Shown: positions 35,927 to 44,009, numbered from the stretch's first letter. The stretch: DNA of 64,000 bases from Candidatus Bathyarchaeia archaeon (GCA_050013255.1 JBEKFP010000001.1:544001-608000), one strand, 5' to 3'. The notes: generated from the letters alone by a model not told the origin. Numbers and translations: made by a program.

Positions 35927-36211
35927 CTATTCCTTAACTCCGTAGATGGAATATACCAAGATCAATAGACCTACAGCAACAACTGAATTTTCTAAGGCGT
36001 GAGCCAGAATTAGCTGGTAACCAAGCACCTCCACAATAAATTCCTCGATTAGAGAGCCCACGAGAATGACCATGAACCCGATCGACATAGCGAGCATAGA
36101 TTTGCTCTTGTTCCTGCGGTAAGCTCTCATGCTAACGTAAACCAGCACACCCCCGAGAGCGACAATAGCGGCCTCACTAGATAGAAGTACCAGATCGTCG
36201 AAACCGATCAT
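35927..36211 (-). CDS. Small three-TM membrane protein partnered with wHTH, copy 2
   Basis: SMRAYRRN...IGF..I..G...E...YSIY; ATGA overlap with the wHTH stop. Confidence 0.82.
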   Translation of the reverse strand: MIGFDDLVLLSSEAAIVALGGVLVYVSMRAYRRNKSKSMLAMSIGFMVILVGSLIEEFIVEVLGYQLILAHALENSVVAVGLLILVYSIYGVKE

Positions 36212-36570
36212 TTCTCCGCCCTCATGGAACTCCACAGCCTAGTTAACTTGTTCACGACATCTTCGTTAAATGAAACGGTTAGCTCAACCTCTCCTGATTT
36301 GTACTCGGCGCGCATGTCCGTCACTGTGTTCCTATAGAGACCGAATTTTTTGCCGTCATTCGTGATGACTGTTCGTTCAACAGTAAGAAGACGGGCGTCG
36401 ACGAGCTCATTTATTCGCCGATACACGCTGCTCGGAGGCAAGGCACATTGATGGATGATCTCCATTGCTGAGCAAGGCTTCTCGGTAGTACTTCTTAGGA
36501 TTGCCAATGCACAATCATCCGCCATCGCCTGCAAGATTGTTTTCTTAAGGGCCGTATCCTGAATAAGCAA
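36208..36570 (-). CDS. Winged-HTH (ArsR-like) regulator, copy 2
   Basis: ILQAMADD...SAMEI...LPPSSVYRRINEL...DGKKF...LTRLWSS; paralog of 20955..21314. Confidence 0.88.
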   Translation of the reverse strand: MLIQDTALKKTILQAMADDCALAILRSTTEKPCSAMEIIHQCALPPSSVYRRINELVDARLLTVERTVITNDGKKFGLYRNTVTDMRAEYKSGEVELTVSFNEDVVNKLTRLWSSMRAEK

Positions 36571-36597: not shown

Positions 36598-36675
36598 AGA
36601 TTTGATAGGCGTCTTCCTGATTTAAGTGTGCGCGCTCCACCCCCATCCCACTCATCCGCTCTGAGAGGCATCGGA

Positions 36676-37320
36676 TTGAAGAATGGATTTGTCGCGATCC
36701 TGCTTGTCCTAATACTGTTGATAGGGCTCGCTGCGGGTTGGCTTGGCGGGAGCATAGGCCTGGTAGGCAAGAACCTGTACTCCAACCAAAGTCAGACTGC
36801 CTCCGTAACTCCACCCGCAACGCTTGACACTACTAAAGTTGTCAATCTTGTTGTCATTCCGGATTGGGGAGGAACAGGCTATGACGCGTTTGTGGTTTCC
36901 ACGTCCGTCAATGGCACAGCTCCCGAACTCGCGACGAATGCGAGTGGCCCAGGACCTAACGACAATAACATAACCATCCACGCGGGCGTCTCAGTCACTT
37001 TTGTAATAACCAACATAGACACCGCAGTCCTCCTGAACTTCACGGGCCCCGCATCAACAGACTTCACTGTTTACAATGATACTGAGAACGGTCAAGTAGC
37101 GTCGCACTATAGTGCCGGGCAGTCGGTCTCCAGCCTTCCAATAAGCCACACATTCACAATCCAGAGCCTTAACGTCAACATCCCGATTCCTCCGGACACA
37201 GTTGTCACCTTCACCTACACGTTCGTCACACCGGGTGTCTACAAATACTTCTGCGAAACCCCTTGTGGACCGGGGATGGACCTTGCAGGATACATGATTG
37301 GATATCTAATTGTCACTTGA
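36676..37320 (+). CDS. Membrane-anchored cupredoxin (CuA/CoxB-like domain)
   Basis: N-terminal TM; SHTF...PGVYKYFCETPCGPGMDLAGYMIG; TTG 36676 follows a GAGG RBS. Confidence 0.8.
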   Translation: MKNGFVAILLVLILLIGLAAGWLGGSIGLVGKNLYSNQSQTASVTPPATLDTTKVVNLVVIPDWGGTGYDAFVVSTSVNGTAPELATNASGPGPNDNNITIHAGVSVTFVITNIDTAVLLNFTGPASTDFTVYNDTENGQVASHYSAGQSVSSLPISHTFTIQSLNVNIPIPPDTVVTFTYTFVTPGVYKYFCETPCGPGMDLAGYMIGYLIVT

Positions 37321-37373
37321 CTGGAATGAACCCATTGAATTATGATAATGCTCTCAAATTGCTTTGAGGGAAC

Positions 37374-38186
37374 TTGATGTCAAGACGACCACGAATTGAA
37401 CGTAGACAACTCCTGAAGGGCACGGCGGTCGCTACAGCTGGCCTGGTATTTTCTTCCCTCGTGAAAGGGTTGGAGCCCGTAAGTTCACAAACGTTAGAAA
37501 ATGCTTCTGCAATGAAAGGCTCAGCAAGACGATACGTCTTCGTTATCGACCTAGACAAATGTGACGGATGCAGGAAATGTACTGAGGGTTGTCACGCGGA
37601 GATGCATGTACCACCTGCCTGGGGAGATCCGAATTATGAGGGCAAGCAGCCTTGGATACAAGTCTTCGATTTCGCTGATGGGACCCATATGCCTGTTCCT
37701 TGTCAGAACTGTCAGAATTCACCCTGCACGAAAGTCTGCCCCGTCGGGGCGACTTACTACAGCGAAGACAACATCGTGCTGATAGACCAGAATAGATGCA
37801 TAGGCTGCAGAATATGCCTAGCATCATGTCCCTATGAGCGCAGATTCTTCAACTGGTACGACCCTCCAGTCACCGAAGAGGAGAAGAAGATACCGTATTC
37901 GCCTGACTACAACATCCCTCATAGGAGAGGTGTTGCCGAAAAATGCGTCTGGTGCAGACACAGAACTAAGATGGGTATGGTGCCTGCCTGCGTCGAAGCC
38001 TGCACAAGAGCAGGTATGAAGGCACTTTGGTTCGGCGATGCGGCTCAGGATGTGGTGTCCAATGGTGTAGATACGGCTAGGTTGAGTACTATGATTCAAG
38101 GGAGAGGCGCTTACCGGTTCAAGGATGAGTTGGGGACGAGCCCAAGTGTCCTATACCTTCCGCCCAGAGGAGGTACAATTACGTGA
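37374..38186 (+). CDS. Tat-exported 4x[4Fe-4S] protein (NrfC/DmsB/QrcC family)
   Basis: ERRQLLK Tat motif; CDGCRKCTEGC, CQNCQNSPCTKVCP, CIGCRICLASCP, CVWC..CVEAC. Confidence 0.93.
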   Translation: MMSRRPRIERRQLLKGTAVATAGLVFSSLVKGLEPVSSQTLENASAMKGSARRYVFVIDLDKCDGCRKCTEGCHAEMHVPPAWGDPNYEGKQPWIQVFDFADGTHMPVPCQNCQNSPCTKVCPVGATYYSEDNIVLIDQNRCIGCRICLASCPYERRFFNWYDPPVTEEEKKIPYSPDYNIPHRRGVAEKCVWCRHRTKMGMVPACVEACTRAGMKALWFGDAAQDVVSNGVDTARLSTMIQGRGAYRFKDELGTSPSVLYLPPRGGTIT

Positions 38187-40111
38187 GCTCAAGTTCGACA
38201 TCGAAAAGCGCCGCACTTTTCGGACCAATCAAGAGTCACTCTTCATCTTCCTATGCCCTAGGAAGCACTCTTCTCGCAATTGCTCTGTGGGGCGTTTACG
38301 CATACTATGTTCAAGTGACGACTGGACTGGGAGTCACAGGAATGAGGTCCGTCGTGTCATGGGCCTTCTACATAATCAATTTCGTCTTCTTCATAGGCAT
38401 AAGCCATGTCGGCGCTTTGATGTCTGCAATACTTAGACTCACAAATGCAGAATGGAGGAAACCAATCACTAGGATTGCCGAGGTGGTTACTTTCTCGTCA
38501 TTAATGATGGCGGTCATGATGCCATTGATCGATCTCGGGAGGCCAGATAGGCTGTTATACACGATTATTTTTGCTAGATTTCAGTCCCCGTTAACCTGGG
38601 ACTTTATGGCAATCGGAACTTACATGATCGGGAGCACCATCTTCTTGTATCTTCCGATGATTCCAGATATCGCATCATGCAGGGACAAATTGGAAGACGC
38701 GTCTAAGTTTCGCAGGTGGCTTTACGGGAAGCTCTCCTTAGGTTGGAACGGTTCATCCGATCAATGGAGACACCTTGAGAAGGCGATTAAGATGATGTCA
38801 ATCATAATCATACCCATCGCCATCTCGGTACACACGGTCGTATCTTGGGATTTTGCCATGCTGTTCAGAACGGGTTGGAACAGCACAATCTTCGGCCCGT
38901 ACTTCGTAGCGGGCGCATTGTTGTCCGGTGTTGCAACCGTAATTTTGGTAATGGCTTTTCTCACCAAGTACTATCATTTGGAAGGCTATATCACGAAACG
39001 GCACTTTGATAATCTCGGAAAACTCCTGATAGCCCTTGACATCATCGTCATCTACTTCACTATAAACGAGAATCTTGTCCCCGGCTACAAGTTCTTCGAT
39101 TCATCAAGCCCTGAAGGGCAATGGATGGCGTCCCTACTCTGGGGTCAGTACTCGACATTCTTCTGGGTTCAACTCATTGGCGGACTCGTGATTCCAGCAT
39201 TTCTGATAGGGCTACCTCGCACAAGAACTATAACCGGATATCTCGTCGCGTCATTGCTTGTCGACGTTGGGATGTGGATTGAACGCTTCAATATTATTGT
39301 GCCAACCCTAGCCCTTCCACAGCTAAGTTACTCATGGGGATCGTACGTACCGACTTGGGTGGAACTCTCAATTGTCGCCGGCACCTTCGCGGGTTTTACT
39401 CTCATCTACTTCGTTTTCAGCCGCCTGTTTCCGGTCATCTCAATCTGGGAAACGGAAGAGCCGAGTGAGGCAAATCCAACGGTCTTCTCGCCACCGTCTA
39501 TGAGGTTGACACTGCAAACTAAGTCTACATCGTCAATGGCGGCGTCCAAGAGAAGCTTCCTGAAATACGGAACGTTTGCAATCGTAGGTTTCGCATTGGG
39601 ATTTGCTCCAATACAAGTTCCAATCAGACCATTGAACTCAAGCGGAAATCGTTCTTCCGTCCCTGTGGTGCCTTTGTCGAACCTCGGGGTAAGTGTCTCG
39701 CTTGCCGAAGCAAAGAAAGCTATTGGGTTCTCAATTTCAAAGCCAACTAAACTTCCGCTAGGAAGCAAGCTGAAGGATGTGAGGGTTTTGGGAGGCAATC
39801 ATATCGTGTCGTTAATTTACGAGAATCCGTTGACCAAGCCACTTTCCTTGTACAATGAAGATGTTGCACTCGTCATCATTCAAGCGCAGGACTCGTTTAA
39901 TGTCACTTCTCCAGCTTATTTGCCGTCTGAATTTATACGAGTTAATGTCGCGGGAAACATTGGCTTCGCAAGAGAACCAAGCCAAGTTTCGGGTGGTGTA
40001 ACTGAGCCTGGCCAACTTCAATGGTGGATAAACGGTGTCCGTTACGCAATATTCGCTGACAGCACGATTAACGAGATGACGAAGACGGCCGAATCCATGG
40101 AGGCGCTTTAA
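38183..40111 (+). CDS. NrfD/ActC-like quinone-binding membrane subunit with C-terminal fused domain
   Basis: INFVFFIGISH, RIAE, DLGRP, SPLTWD, SVHTVVSWDFA, STIFGPYFVAGA, MWIERF, FPVISIWE, then SKRSFLK+TM and a ~160-aa soluble domain. Confidence 0.92.
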   Translation: MSSSSTSKSAALFGPIKSHSSSSYALGSTLLAIALWGVYAYYVQVTTGLGVTGMRSVVSWAFYIINFVFFIGISHVGALMSAILRLTNAEWRKPITRIAEVVTFSSLMMAVMMPLIDLGRPDRLLYTIIFARFQSPLTWDFMAIGTYMIGSTIFLYLPMIPDIASCRDKLEDASKFRRWLYGKLSLGWNGSSDQWRHLEKAIKMMSIIIIPIAISVHTVVSWDFAMLFRTGWNSTIFGPYFVAGALLSGVATVILVMAFLTKYYHLEGYITKRHFDNLGKLLIALDIIVIYFTINENLVPGYKFFDSSSPEGQWMASLLWGQYSTFFWVQLIGGLVIPAFLIGLPRTRTITGYLVASLLVDVGMWIERFNIIVPTLALPQLSYSWGSYVPTWVELSIVAGTFAGFTLIYFVFSRLFPVISIWETEEPSEANPTVFSPPSMRLTLQTKSTSSMAASKRSFLKYGTFAIVGFALGFAPIQVPIRPLNSSGNRSSVPVVPLSNLGVSVSLAEAKKAIGFSISKPTKLPLGSKLKDVRVLGGNHIVSLIYENPLTKPLSLYNEDVALVIIQAQDSFNVTSPAYLPSEFIRVNVAGNIGFAREPSQVSGGVTEPGQLQWWINGVRYAIFADSTINEMTKTAESMEAL

Positions 40112-40112
40112 G

Positions 40113-41090
40113 GTGCGAAGTGCGCCTGCCCTAATTGTACTGTTCACATTCTTCTTAATCCTTCAATTCGCAAATGCAACAGCAGCGTCGAGTCAATTGA
40201 CGGACATTTCTGGAAACCTCACGGTCTTCAACCTCACGCCAAGCAGCAATGAAACAGGAGTTAGGTATTTCACAGTCCTCGTGAGCGCCTCAGGATTCAA
40301 CGGCTCGCCTAACCCATTCTACCTTCAGGTAATTCAGGGCGATCGAGTCGATATCCGGTTCATCTATGCCGACCAAGACCTCTCTTTCGATAACCCTCAC
40401 AAGATGCTCATTGGTGGATACAACATTGTGACGGGCAATGTTGATAGACAGATACCAGTACAGGAAGTGAATTTTACTGCAAGTCAAGTTGGGAGTTTTG
40501 CATTTTATTGCATTATTCCATGCTTCGGCATGGAGAACCTGCAGGGAGGCTTCCTCGTTGTGAGTGCTTCAACGCGGACAGCGCCCGTCTCAACTAACCT
40601 TAGCCAATTGAATGTCGCAGCACGTGGAAATGTCATCACCGTATCGGTACTTCTTGCCAATAAGAACGGAGCCCCTATATCTGGTGCAATCGTAGAATTC
40701 TCTGTAAGCAGCGACTTTGGTCAAGTGAAGATGGGCCAGAATACGACTGGCTCCGATGGAACGGCCCAACTTTCTTTTCCGTTGAGTACCCCCAGAGCAA
40801 TTTTTGTGACAGTACATTTTGCAGGCAGCGGTCAATACTTGCAAAGCCAGACGGCAATCTCGTTCATTCCTCCGCCTCAGCAAACCGAGCCAACCCTCGA
40901 GTCGCCTTATGTCAACGGACAGGCACCAAGCGTCGATATTCGACTCGCGGGTATCCTACCCGTCCATTCATTGATCATCGTAACAGTGGGTTTGATTGTT
41001 GTCCTATCGGTATGGTGCGTATACGCACTCGTCTTGAAGGAAGTAGTGGGGGTTTGGAAGGCTGGCAAAACAATGGAGGAAGACAAATGA
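40113..41090 (+). CDS. Secreted cupredoxin + Ig-like domain protein with C-terminal TM
   Basis: Signal peptide; NPH...GSFAFYCIIPCFGMENLQG; Ig-like GAPISGAIVEF..TTGSDGTA; C-terminal hydrophobic helix. Confidence 0.75.
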   Translation: MRSAPALIVLFTFFLILQFANATAASSQLTDISGNLTVFNLTPSSNETGVRYFTVLVSASGFNGSPNPFYLQVIQGDRVDIRFIYADQDLSFDNPHKMLIGGYNIVTGNVDRQIPVQEVNFTASQVGSFAFYCIIPCFGMENLQGGFLVVSASTRTAPVSTNLSQLNVAARGNVITVSVLLANKNGAPISGAIVEFSVSSDFGQVKMGQNTTGSDGTAQLSFPLSTPRAIFVTVHFAGSGQYLQSQTAISFIPPPQQTEPTLESPYVNGQAPSVDIRLAGILPVHSLIIVTVGLIVVLSVWCVYALVLKEVVGVWKAGKTMEEDK

Positions 41091-41608
41091 ACGATAAGCA
41101 CCTAGCTGTAATTACACCGCTCATACTCCTCGCCATAATGGTGGCCTTCACACAGACTCAGATAGTGCCCATATGGCTCACCGACCACCGCTCATCACTC
41201 GAATCCTCGCTGCCCGATGTCTCGGGCCTGCAATTAGTGGGCTACAATTTCAACAGAGATCTCGTGCAAGTCTCAGTCACGCTATGGAACAGAGGTACCA
41301 GCCCTCTGAACATAACTGCAATTTACTTCGACAACGTGAAACTCATCAAAGGAACAGTTGGATCCCCAACAGATCCCACAATTATCGGGTCTACGCCTGA
41401 AGGAAACCTTTCGATTACTTCAAACGATATTGTGTTCCCAGCTAGCTCCCGGTGGAACATGTTCACCGGGGGCGGCAACATACCCATCATTCAGCCTAAC
41501 GGGTTCGTTACGCTTTTCCTAGGCGTCTCATCGCCTACGCCTGGCTCCATGCACACGCTGATTGTTCTCGCAGGAGCCCAAGAGTTCGTTTTCGAACTTC
41601 AGAGATAG
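41087..41608 (+). CDS. Membrane-anchored beta-sandwich protein
   Basis: ATGA overlap with the upstream gene; N-terminal TM; VSVTLWNRGTSPLNITAIYFD resembles archaeal Ig/pilin-like domains. Confidence 0.75.
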   Translation: MNDKHLAVITPLILLAIMVAFTQTQIVPIWLTDHRSSLESSLPDVSGLQLVGYNFNRDLVQVSVTLWNRGTSPLNITAIYFDNVKLIKGTVGSPTDPTIIGSTPEGNLSITSNDIVFPASSRWNMFTGGGNIPIIQPNGFVTLFLGVSSPTPGSMHTLIVLAGAQEFVFELQR

Positions 41609-42688: not shown

Positions 42689-42794
42689 CCATTGGTACGG
42701 GCAAGGGTCTTGTTGGTCTGCCTTCGAACAGAAGAAAGTATTCAAATACGGTGTGTTGATTCTAACGGCGTATATTTCAGGCCGTGTGTTGAGC

Positions 42795-44009
42795 ATGGTT
42801 GATGGTTGGTCCCCTCCCAAAAATGCGAAAATTTGGGGCCATTTGTTCAACGAAGTGGTCCGTGCAAAGCACTGCATGATGTGCGGCGCCTGCGTCGCCT
42901 CATGCCCGATTAATGTTCTCAACGTGAATGTAAATGAAGAACCAGTCATCAAAGGACCATGTGCCGCCTGCCAGGTTTGCTATTACAGCTGCCCCAGGCT
43001 GGAGTTTCCTTTGGATGAAATTGAGTACTACTTGTTCGGTAGGACTCGGAAACCCGAAGAAGAGTCACTGGGGATTTACAGGAATATTTACTCCGCGAGA
43101 GCGTTGGACGAGGAGATTTGGCATGCAGGCCAAGATGGCGGAACCGTAATAGCGCTAATGACCCACGCCCTCCAAATAGGACTGATTAACTCCTTCGCCA
43201 CATCAGACTTCACGAAATCTAACTCGGTCTTCGTTCTTGGCAACGGAATGACCCTCAAGACAGTGCCCGTAGTAGGGGATACTGCAGCCGACCTAATTCG
43301 AACAGCCGGTTCGAAGTACACTCATGGCGGCGTTCTCGGCGTCTTGTCCGACGCCGCCGCATCATACCCCGATGGGCGAGTTGGTTTAGTTGCCCTTCCG
43401 TGCGAACTACAGGGACTATGGCGAATGTACACATCGCTGCAGGCCACGGTGAAATTTGGTGGCTCTTGGATCAGAGGTGGAAGACCAGTTCTAACAGTTG
43501 GGTTGTTCTGCTCGAAAGTGTACACACACGACCAGCTCGTCACCGAATTTATCCAAAAGAAACATGGGATAGACCCTGCAAAGATTACTAGGACGGTTGT
43601 CAAGAGGAACCGGTTCAAAGTCTACGTCGGAGCCGACCCCGTCCTCGACGTTAACATCAAAGAACTTGAGCCATACATGAGCCAACCGTGCCATTACTGC
43701 ATCGACTACGTTGCCGAATTGGCGGATATTTCGGTTGGCGCAGTCGGTTCAGCTGACGGCTGGACAACCGTTATCGTGCGTTCGGAAATGGGACAGAAAT
43801 TATTCGATAGCGCGGTCAGGTCCAAGGTCATCGAAGCTGCTCCTATAGAAATGGTCAAACCCACCGGACTACCATTCCTTGTTAAGCTCTCTAACAAGAA
43901 GAAACGGGAACGCAACGCATACTACCTGAGGCGGGGGTTACGCGAAGGGTTCCTTGAGCAAAGAAAACATGAACTCCTCCAAATTACCCCTGTCCCGACA
44001 GCCCAATGA
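42795..44009 (+). CDS. F420-dependent dehydrogenase beta subunit (FrhB/FdhB/FpoF family) with N-terminal ferredoxin
   Basis: CMMCGACVASCP, CAACQVCYYSCP, GQDGG, AGSKY, LPC, GLFC, CHYC, ADISVG. Confidence 0.9.
   Translation: MVDGWSPPKNAKIWGHLFNEVVRAKHCMMCGACVASCPINVLNVNVNEEPVIKGPCAACQVCYYSCPRLEFPLDEIEYYLFGRTRKPEEESLGIYRNIYSARALDEEIWHAGQDGGTVIALMTHALQIGLINSFATSDFTKSNSVFVLGNGMTLKTVPVVGDTAADLIRTAGSKYTHGGVLGVLSDAAASYPDGRVGLVALPCELQGLWRMYTSLQATVKFGGSWIRGGRPVLTVGLFCSKVYTHDQLVTEFIQKKHGIDPAKITRTVVKRNRFKVYVGADPVLDVNIKELEPYMSQPCHYCIDYVAELADISVGAVGSADGWTTVIVRSEMGQKLFDSAVRSKVIEAAPIEMVKPTGLPFLVKLSNKKKRERNAYYLRRGLREGFLEQRKHELLQITPVPTAQ

Follow-up and report, generated by a model that had tools for sequence, protein, structure and literature searches.

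A candidate copper-wired quinol oxidoreductase with an alternative complex III-like core in a Bathyarchaeia archaeon

Can an NrfD-type membrane module oxidise quinol with neither a molybdopterin subunit nor a cytochrome c at its side? The question is raised by a five-gene operon of Candidatus Bathyarchaeia archaeon. The operon lies within a 64,000-nucleotide stretch of DNA (GCA_050013255.1 JBEKFP010000001.1:544001-608000), the whole of which was analysed and is here called the window. An original prediction, made from the sequence alone, held that the operon encodes a cytochrome-free quinol oxidoreductase resembling bacterial alternative complex III (ACIII). We favour a closely related reading. 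The operon would specify an ACIII-core respiratory quinol:cupredoxin oxidoreductase, with tethered copper proteins that pass electrons towards an oxidase. We give this reading a probability of about 0.62.

The operon occupies positions 36676-41608 of the window. Five open reading frames (ORFs) were confirmed on the plus strand, all co-oriented. Domains were called by Pfam and NCBIfam scans of the window proteins. The features are as follows, with TM denoting transmembrane, Fe-S iron-sulphur, Ig immunoglobulin and Tat twin-arginine translocation.

36676..37320, plus strand: cup1, with an N-terminal TM anchor, a linker and a CuA-type (COX2-like) cupredoxin domain
37374..38186, plus strand: Fe-S subunit of the NrfC/DsrO/ActB2 type, predicted to be Tat-exported, with 16 cysteines and no TM helix
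38183..39500, plus strand: ActC-like NrfD membrane core, with quinol site and putative proton path
39500..40111, plus strand: C-terminal extension of NrfD, with a linker, KR and TM helix, and an outer alpha/beta domain of about 140 residues
40113..41090, plus strand: cup2, with a signal peptide, a cupredoxin head, a Big_1 Ig-like domain and a C-terminal TM anchor
41087..41608, plus strand: orf5, with an N-terminal TM anchor and a beta-rich outer domain of about 140 residues; possibly a structural subunit

The last four genes are translationally coupled. The Fe-S stop codon and the NrfD start codon overlap as GTGA (38183-38186). The NrfD gene stops at 40111 and, after a gap of 1 nucleotide, cup2 starts with GTG at 40113. 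The cup2 stop and orf5 start overlap as ATGA (41087-41090). Because of this overlap, we place the orf5 start at 41087 and not at 41012, where the longest ORF begins. The reading frame of cup1 is already open at 36628. Reading of the sequence placed a spacer of about 53 nucleotides, containing GAGGGA, between the cup1 stop (37320) and the Fe-S start (37374/37377). A CxxCH motif is missing from all five proteins, and the window contains no molybdopterin (Mo-pterin) gene. Hence, the original prediction was right about the arrangement of the genes, their coupling and the two absences.

The membrane core is most similar to ActC. The NrfD-family protein has 642 residues and matches PF03916 (E 1e-31). 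In a phmmer search of the PDB, it matched ActC of Roseiflexus, Rhodothermus, Flavobacterium and Chloroflexus over residues 24-432 (6lod_C, 6f0k_C, 6btm_C and 8k9e_C; E 1e-63 to 1e-68). Otherwise, only a weak ActF match was returned, and Thermus PsrC (2vpz) gave no match at E<=1. The NrfD motifs singled out beforehand as following the ActC pattern occupy columns of the family alignment that vary little or not at all. That claim is borne out by the ActC-only affinity in the PDB. Grouping with PsrC or DmsC, which would have counted against the prediction, was not observed, and the protein also stands apart from a molybdenum (Mo)-linked NrfD in the tree described below.

Residues assigned to R. 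marinus ActC were transferred to the archaeal protein through a HMMER alignment. In R. marinus, H139, S164, D169 and D253 make up the quinol pocket and Arg395 is a gate in mid-membrane (PMC8076601). Three pocket residues are identical in the archaeal NrfD, where S135, D140 and D223 correspond to S164, D169 and D253. Residue R368, within the MWIERF motif, is equivalent to Arg395. Asp117 stands at the H139 position, which is also Asp in DsrP and QrcD (PMC8076601). Among 12 diverse NrfD homologues, S135, D140 and R368 are invariant and D117 is nearly so. D223 is replaced by V, I or M in four shorter members of the alignment, of Thermoplasmata/Heimdall type.

The partner of NrfD is an Fe-S protein with its own export signal. 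It carries a TAT_signal match (RRQLLK), a Fer4_11 domain and 16 cysteines arranged as four C-x2-C-x2..-C-x3-C groups. From these groups, the subunit probably holds four cubane clusters. Its PDB matches are about equal for PsrB (1e-25) and for the C-terminal part of ActB (6f0k_B residues 796-963; 1.5e-25). Among NCBIfam models, DsrO scores best for this protein and DsrP for NrfD. The QrcC, TtrB and NrfC models likewise fall below their cut-offs for the Fe-S protein. A DsrOP identity was considered for the pair and rejected: the scores are 176 bits against a cut-off of 200 and 117 against 350, the true DsrP branch lies elsewhere in the tree, and no dsrMKJ-like genes are adjacent.

How widespread is this arrangement? 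More than 7,800 homologue matches were found for the NrfD family. A scan of species-representative genomes gave 80 loci in archaea and a wide range of bacterial phyla, with identities of 43-90%. Their neighbourhoods were read by script and fall into three types. Type A consists of one or more cupredoxins, the Tat Fe-S protein, NrfD and a cupredoxin-Big_1-TM protein, with an orf5-like gene optional. It occurs in Bathyarchaeia, Caldarchaeales/HR01, Thaumarchaeota, a few Chloroflexota and Symbiobacterium. The bacterial homologues include those of metagenome assemblies assigned to Symbiobacterium thermophilum (L052). Type B combines the Tat Fe-S protein and NrfD with a monohaem protein of about 360 residues, in Chloroflexota and Acidimicrobiia. 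Type C comprises pentahaem, Mo-pterin-like, Fe-S, NrfD and tetrahaem proteins and is found in Bacteroidota, Acidobacteriota, Ignavibacteriota and others. Counts for each type are approximate, as greedy ORF calling missed some high-GC bacterial loci (six scored 'noNrfD' and some 'U'). The cupredoxins are conserved neighbours: the cupredoxin and Ig gene follows NrfD in Bathyarchaeia, Caldarchaeales, Thaumarchaeota and some Chloroflexota/Symbiobacterium.

The Fe-S gene lies directly 5' of the NrfD gene in all related loci where tblastn found both. In the Mo-free loci that we read, the RR motif is on the Fe-S protein itself. In both Mo-pterin-containing loci read (type C; L036 and L054), it is on the Mo-pterin-like protein. 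This placement of the RR motif fits a genuine Mo-free design rather than a missing gene.

The NrfD sequences were also placed in a tree. The references were the canonical ActA-B-C-D-E-F operons of two bacterial genomes, two DsrP proteins (504 and 431 bits) and the genome's own Mo-linked NrfD. The window's NrfD falls in a clade of five archaeal type-A loci, with 99% support in the Shimodaira-Hasegawa-like approximate likelihood ratio test (SH-aLRT). Canonical ActC and ActF are placed inside the type-C clade (99%), and the larger group to which they belong also contains the window's clade. In agreement with the PDB search, DsrP and the Mo-linked NrfD fall outside the whole A/B/C assemblage. Only SH-aLRT support was computed, in a 'quick' IQ-TREE search, and the exact positions of ActF, ActC, DsrP and other long reference branches are unsure. 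It has no QrcD, since none exceeded the NCBIfam cut-off in five genomes searched, and no PsrC, whose distance rests on the PDB search.

The type-C clusters are of separate note. Those at L036, L054, L053, L075 and others encode a pentahaem protein, a split Mo-pterin-like protein, an Fe-S protein, an ActC-like NrfD and a tetrahaem protein, with no ActD, ActE or ActF. They share genomes (G001, G004) with a canonical ACIII operon. Their NrfD is nearer to that of the window than canonical ActC is.

The gene that follows NrfD was then compared between loci. At every locus compared (L022, L023, L021, L013, L007 and the window), it encodes a head, Big_1 and a TM helix. In the Chloroflexota loci L022 and L023, the head is a cytochrome c (PF13442). 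In L021, it is a cytochrome c followed by a cupredoxin. In L013, L007 and the window, it is a cupredoxin alone. Since the heads interchange on the same Big_1 and TM stalk, the copper domain takes the place of an electron-transfer cytochrome. We regard this swap as our most informative comparative result. It partly sustains the earlier claim that copper domains replace ActA and ActE. A cytochrome c is indeed exchanged for a cupredoxin on the Ig and TM stalk, but the positions are not homologous to ActA or ActE.

Both putative copper proteins show part of the CuA ligand set, which is His...Cys-x3-Cys-x3-His-x2-Met on a cupredoxin fold. For cup1, there is a weak Cupredoxin_1 match together with NosZ and CoxB C-terminal matches. 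Over its last 50 residues, cup1 aligns with the CuA loop of Thermus ba3 subunit II (E 5e-7). The equivalents of H114, C149 and C153 are retained, Met stands at H157, and there is no Met at the +3 position. Hence, the cup1 site reads His...C-x3-C-x3-Met. In cup2, Big_1 (residues 166-248) lies behind a cupredoxin-fold head with H96, C133, C137 and M140. The motif is C-x3-C-x2-Met, and in distant homologues C-x3-C-x2-His. H96, C133 and C137 are invariant in 17 aligned homologues. Caldarchaeales, Thaumarchaeota, Chloroflexota and Symbiobacterium carry His at position 140, which is Met in the window's lineage. For this alignment, a word-based homologue search gave close relatives only, and the distant homologues were drawn from the loci. 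An AlphaFold2 (AF2) model of cup2 has two beta-sandwich domains and a C-terminal helix. Its predicted local distance difference test (pLDDT) score is 75 overall; the cupredoxin head exceeds 85, and most of the second domain scores 77-87. Foldseek pairs the model with two-domain cupredoxin proteins.

What could accept electrons from such proteins? The genome (2.46 Mb in 3 contigs, estimated 100% complete with 8.6% contamination) has one haem-copper oxidase operon. This encodes COX2 with a canonical CuA motif, COX1, CtaA and COX3. No gene in the genome belongs to PF01578 (the CcmC/CcmF/CcsA family) of cytochrome c maturation, and no ORF has the appearance of a multihaem cytochrome. Two further cup2-like cupredoxins, both with full Cys2His(Met) motifs, are encoded at C2:226151 and C1:1260201. 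The former (C2:226151-226633, minus strand) is a stand-alone protein of 160 residues in which the CuA motif is canonical (C-x3-C-x3-H-x2-M). Its immediate neighbour is one of the Rieske/cytochrome b pairs (C2:227344-228253), and the protein may be the copper acceptor of this complex. Because a CuA-type cupredoxin adjoins this pair, cupredoxins of this kind appear to accompany quinol oxidases here.

The preferred reading can be set out as a path. Quinol would be bound and oxidised at the ActC-type site of NrfD, near the outer membrane face. The Tat-exported, four-cluster Fe-S subunit would dock on NrfD and take the electrons. From the Fe-S chain, electrons would pass to one or two tethered CuA-derived cupredoxins: cup2 on its Ig-like stalk and cup1 on its N-terminal anchor. 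We infer that these bind copper and form a complex with the core. They would stand in for cytochromes c, which the archaeon cannot make. The tethered copper centre or centres would deliver electrons to the CuA subunit II of the single haem-copper oxidase and so to O2. Protons from quinol would be released outside. An additional transfer, a form of proton pumping, may occur through the ActC-type channel (central Arg368), adding to the membrane potential.

Several observations weigh against this reading. Both copper sites carry Met at the second CuA His (window 37140-37320 and 40395-40535). Because of this replacement in both proteins, the lineage cannot be assumed to have a standard binuclear CuA centre. 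The oxidase genes lie apart from the operon. Three Rieske/cytochrome b pairs are encoded in the genome, so quinol oxidation is already provided. Of the 23 genomes of the genus, 15 lack the operon, including some that are 99-100% complete, and it was found in none of the 47 genomes searched from other families of the order. The futalosine pathway genes MqnA/D (PF02621) were not found in the genome. Finally, the stretch was matched only in DNA runs from peat or wetland, which may be the source of the DNA, and no RNA run was listed.

The distribution is patchy at each level sampled. In the order (105 genomes), an orthologue is present in 8/23 members of the genus, including the window's own, in 1/3 of the sister genus and in 0/79 others. 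Of 151 genomes sampled from the class, the window's genome alone carries the orthologue. A haem-copper oxidase is present in 22/23 genus genomes, so its co-occurrence with the operon is uninformative. The search of the genome that was suggested at the outset, for bc1/Rieske genes, orphan Mo subunits and terminal oxidases, had a mixed outcome. There is no orphan Mo subunit and there is one oxidase, but with three Rieske/cytochrome b pairs the operon is not the sole quinol oxidiser. Given these pairs and the patchy occurrence in the genus, we take the module to be accessory and dispensable, and not the sole 'complex III'.

The Met substitutions could be explained in another way. Redox copper may have been lost through the change from His to Met, so that the cupredoxin-like domains and orf5 are structural or assembly subunits. 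The Fe-S and NrfD proteins would then serve an unlinked carrier, such as one of the CuA-type cupredoxins encoded elsewhere. That the second His is replaced in both cup1 and cup2 is in keeping with this idea, as are the full motifs of the proteins at C2:226151 and C1:1260201. ACIII itself has non-redox subunits (ActD, and ActB1, which has no cofactor). However, Met is a common copper ligand. Furthermore, His96, Cys133 and Cys137 are invariant and Met is strictly kept at NrfD identities of 57-93%, which argues for a maintained metal site and against decay. Both Met residues persist in the seven related loci with a readable site (L004, L005, L149-L152 and L154; six are of the window's genus). We consider loss of redox copper unlikely. 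By its sequence, the Cys2-His-Met site is a possible natural variant of the CuA-type site.

Just as improbable, in our estimation, is electron flow in the opposite direction. The cupredoxins would take electrons from an extracytoplasmic donor, such as Fe(II), reduced humics or another periplasmic oxidase, and the Fe-S chain would reduce quinone. The operon would then act in a Qrc-like manner, or 'uphill' with the proton-motive force driving electrons via the ActC-type channel. NrfD modules are known to work both ways: Qrc reduces menaquinone and Psr activity depends on membrane potential (PMC8076601). A peat or wetland habitat suits such a role. So does an accessory, patchy operon that is unlinked to the oxidase genes, as might be expected of a substrate-specific input module. 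Yet no candidate substrate-oxidising enzyme is encoded in or beside the operon. CuA-type centres typically have a high potential, which would make quinone reduction strongly uphill. In addition, the closest characterised relatives by sequence, the ACIII complexes, oxidise quinol.

The idea that the Fe-S and NrfD proteins anchor a conventional molybdoenzyme (Psr/Ttr/Dms-like), with its catalytic subunit elsewhere, is close to refuted: NCBI and JGI automatically name homologues 'NrfD/PsrC family molybdoenzyme membrane anchor', but PsrC is undetectable by sequence, the Fe-S protein has its own Tat signal and need not hitch-hike on a Mo subunit, and the sole Mo-pterin gene, in a genome estimated to be complete, sits in an A-B-C-TorD-like chaperone operon of its own, leaving no orphan. 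On the same grounds (no orphan Mo subunit, PsrC undetected at E<=1 and the Mo-linked NrfD outside the clade), we rejected identification of the pair as PsrBC, DmsBC or TtrBC. PF03916 occurs in two places only in the genome, the operon's NrfD and a gene of this Mo operon 708 kb away. The Mo operon (C1:1288179-1295049; L003 5180-12049) encodes a DMSO-reductase-family A subunit of 814 residues, below all equivalog cut-offs, an Fe-S B subunit, an NrfD-type C subunit, a TorD-like chaperone and a polyferredoxin of 467 residues. MobA and MobB are encoded just upstream on the opposite strand.

How does the proposed quinol:cupredoxin oxidoreductase relate to known systems? ACIII (ActABCDEF; 6F0K, 6BTM, 6LOD, 8K9E) is the obvious comparison. 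The archaeal NrfD is ActC-like over its full length, with quinol-site residues and the central Arg, and the Fe-S subunit resembles the C-terminal half of ActB. Both subunits are described as being on the outer membrane side. Unlike ACIII, the operon encodes neither of the c-type cytochromes ActA (pentahaem) and ActE (monohaem). Its Fe-S protein is B2-like only, with no Mo-pterin-like ActB1 domain. A second NrfD-like subunit (ActF) is missing, as is any recognisable ActD. At ActC position 139, His gives way to Asp. A [3Fe-4S] cluster is improbable, as the Fe-S protein retains all 16 cysteines. The copper domains are tethered and co-encoded, and the host is an archaeon. Because four defining features are lacking (ActA/ActE, ActB1 and ActF), we do not class the operon as ACIII. 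There is precedent for a copper acceptor: in Chloroflexales, ACIII reduces the blue copper protein auracyanin (PMC7439408, PMC10873879).

Other parallels are partial. Clusters in Chloroflexota and Actinomycetota (L015, L018, L020, L022, L023 and others) share the three-gene core in the same order, about 50% NrfD identity, an Ig-like stalk with TM anchor after NrfD, and the absence of a Mo-pterin subunit. They differ in having a monohaem cytochrome c head (PF13442), or both heads in L021, and in lacking cup1 and orf5. The literature searched contains no description of these clusters. NrfCD (nitrite reductase), DsrOP (of DsrMKJOP) and QrcCD are also two-subunit Fe-S and NrfD quinone modules for a separate redox partner, but their partners are cytochromes c whereas those of the operon are copper proteins. 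Archaeal Rieske/cytochrome b complexes with cupredoxin acceptors also send electrons from quinol through a copper carrier to a haem-copper oxidase in archaea that have no cytochrome c. Plastocyanin-like acceptors of this kind are described for ammonia-oxidising archaea and Angelarchaeales (PMC9038741). The machinery is unrelated, with a Rieske protein, a dihaem cytochrome b and a Q-cycle in place of the operon's Fe-S protein and cofactor-less NrfD. A review of the NrfD family lists no copper-linked member and reports ActC/ActF in bacteria only (PMC8076601). In the literature searched, we found no description of this operon, nor of NrfD/ActC combined with a cupredoxin or with these archaeal lineages.

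The NrfD extension is present in about 70 full-length homologues (about 640 residues) and absent from shorter relatives. AF2 models the extension segment with pLDDT above 90 for residues 60-200, and it has no cofactor motif. Its outer domain has no Pfam or PDB sequence match and Foldseek returned nothing at E<=0.001. VIA-align gave middling Z scores of 8-9 to BT_1490, the RseB/MucB C-domain and PsbP/Mog1-like folds, and we read these modelled similarities as resemblance of fold, not of function. No similarity between the extension and ActD was found, and homology is not thereby excluded. In a Caldarchaeales metagenome-assembled genome (L007 9158-9874), the extension is in a different, overlapping frame (416 and 238 residues), reflecting either an assembly frameshift or a split gene. 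Homologues of orf5 occupy the same position in L004, L005, L006 and L007 (Bathyarchaeia and Caldarchaeales). The orf5 protein belongs to no Pfam or NCBIfam family, and a protein atlas offers only leads, to archaeal pilin/FlaF-Ig-like clusters (score 0.91).

Upstream of the operon is a divergent pair of genes, one encoding a winged helix-turn-helix (wHTH) protein.

35927..36570, minus strand: wHTH and DUF7521 pair, divergent from the operon, of uncertain membership in it
36208-36570, minus strand: wHTH (HTH_20/ArsR-like) regulator, by Pfam
35927-36235, minus strand: DUF7521 protein with three TM helices, by Pfam

The wHTH gene, with or without its partner, adjoins the Fe-S/NrfD operon in L004, L005, L009 (Thaumarchaeota) and L011 (Thermoplasmatota). 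It is found beside the operon at five archaeal loci in three lineages. By position, the wHTH protein is a candidate regulator of the operon. The PyrD encoded 1.4 kb upstream is of the quinone-dependent dihydroorotate dehydrogenase type, as had been stated, and passes the cut-offs of NF003652 (276 against 267 bits) and TIGR01036 (229 against 200). It is in keeping with a quinone pool and counts in favour of the preferred reading. An FrhB/FpoF-like F420-dependent dehydrogenase beta subunit with two [4Fe-4S] motifs is encoded 1.1 kb downstream (42753-44009, plus strand).

A broader proposal can be made only tentatively, and we hold it to be doubtful. Together with an interchangeable outer redox head, which can be a cupredoxin, a cytochrome c or both, the Tat Fe-S protein and ActC-like NrfD may constitute a family of proton-motive quinol oxidoreductases that is widespread, undescribed and shared by both domains. 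The archaeal form would rely on Fe-S and copper only, with a new CuA-derived Cys2-His-Met centre. ACIII would have been elaborated from this minimal core, and the six-subunit enzyme would not be the starting point.

There are few kinds of respiratory quinol:acceptor oxidoreductase (bc1/b6f and ACIII). If our reading is correct, an ACIII-core complex that is wired by copper, with no haem or Mo-pterin-like subunit, would add a variant to this set. The exchange of cytochrome c and cupredoxin on a conserved stalk is a natural experiment in the swapping of redox modules. For bioinorganic study, the CuA-type loop with its conserved change from His to Met offers a candidate new copper-site variant. 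The module is present in peat and soil archaea and many bacteria, and so affects the respiratory capacity inferred from metagenomes, where these genes are now automatically named 'polysulfide reductase', 'HybB-like' or 'molybdoenzyme anchor'. The instance described here adds an archaeal clade with a placement in the tree, an outer domain fused to NrfD, and an accessory role beside three Rieske/cytochrome b complexes. For organisms with no cytochrome c biogenesis, it would mean that NrfD-type quinol chemistry is nonetheless usable.

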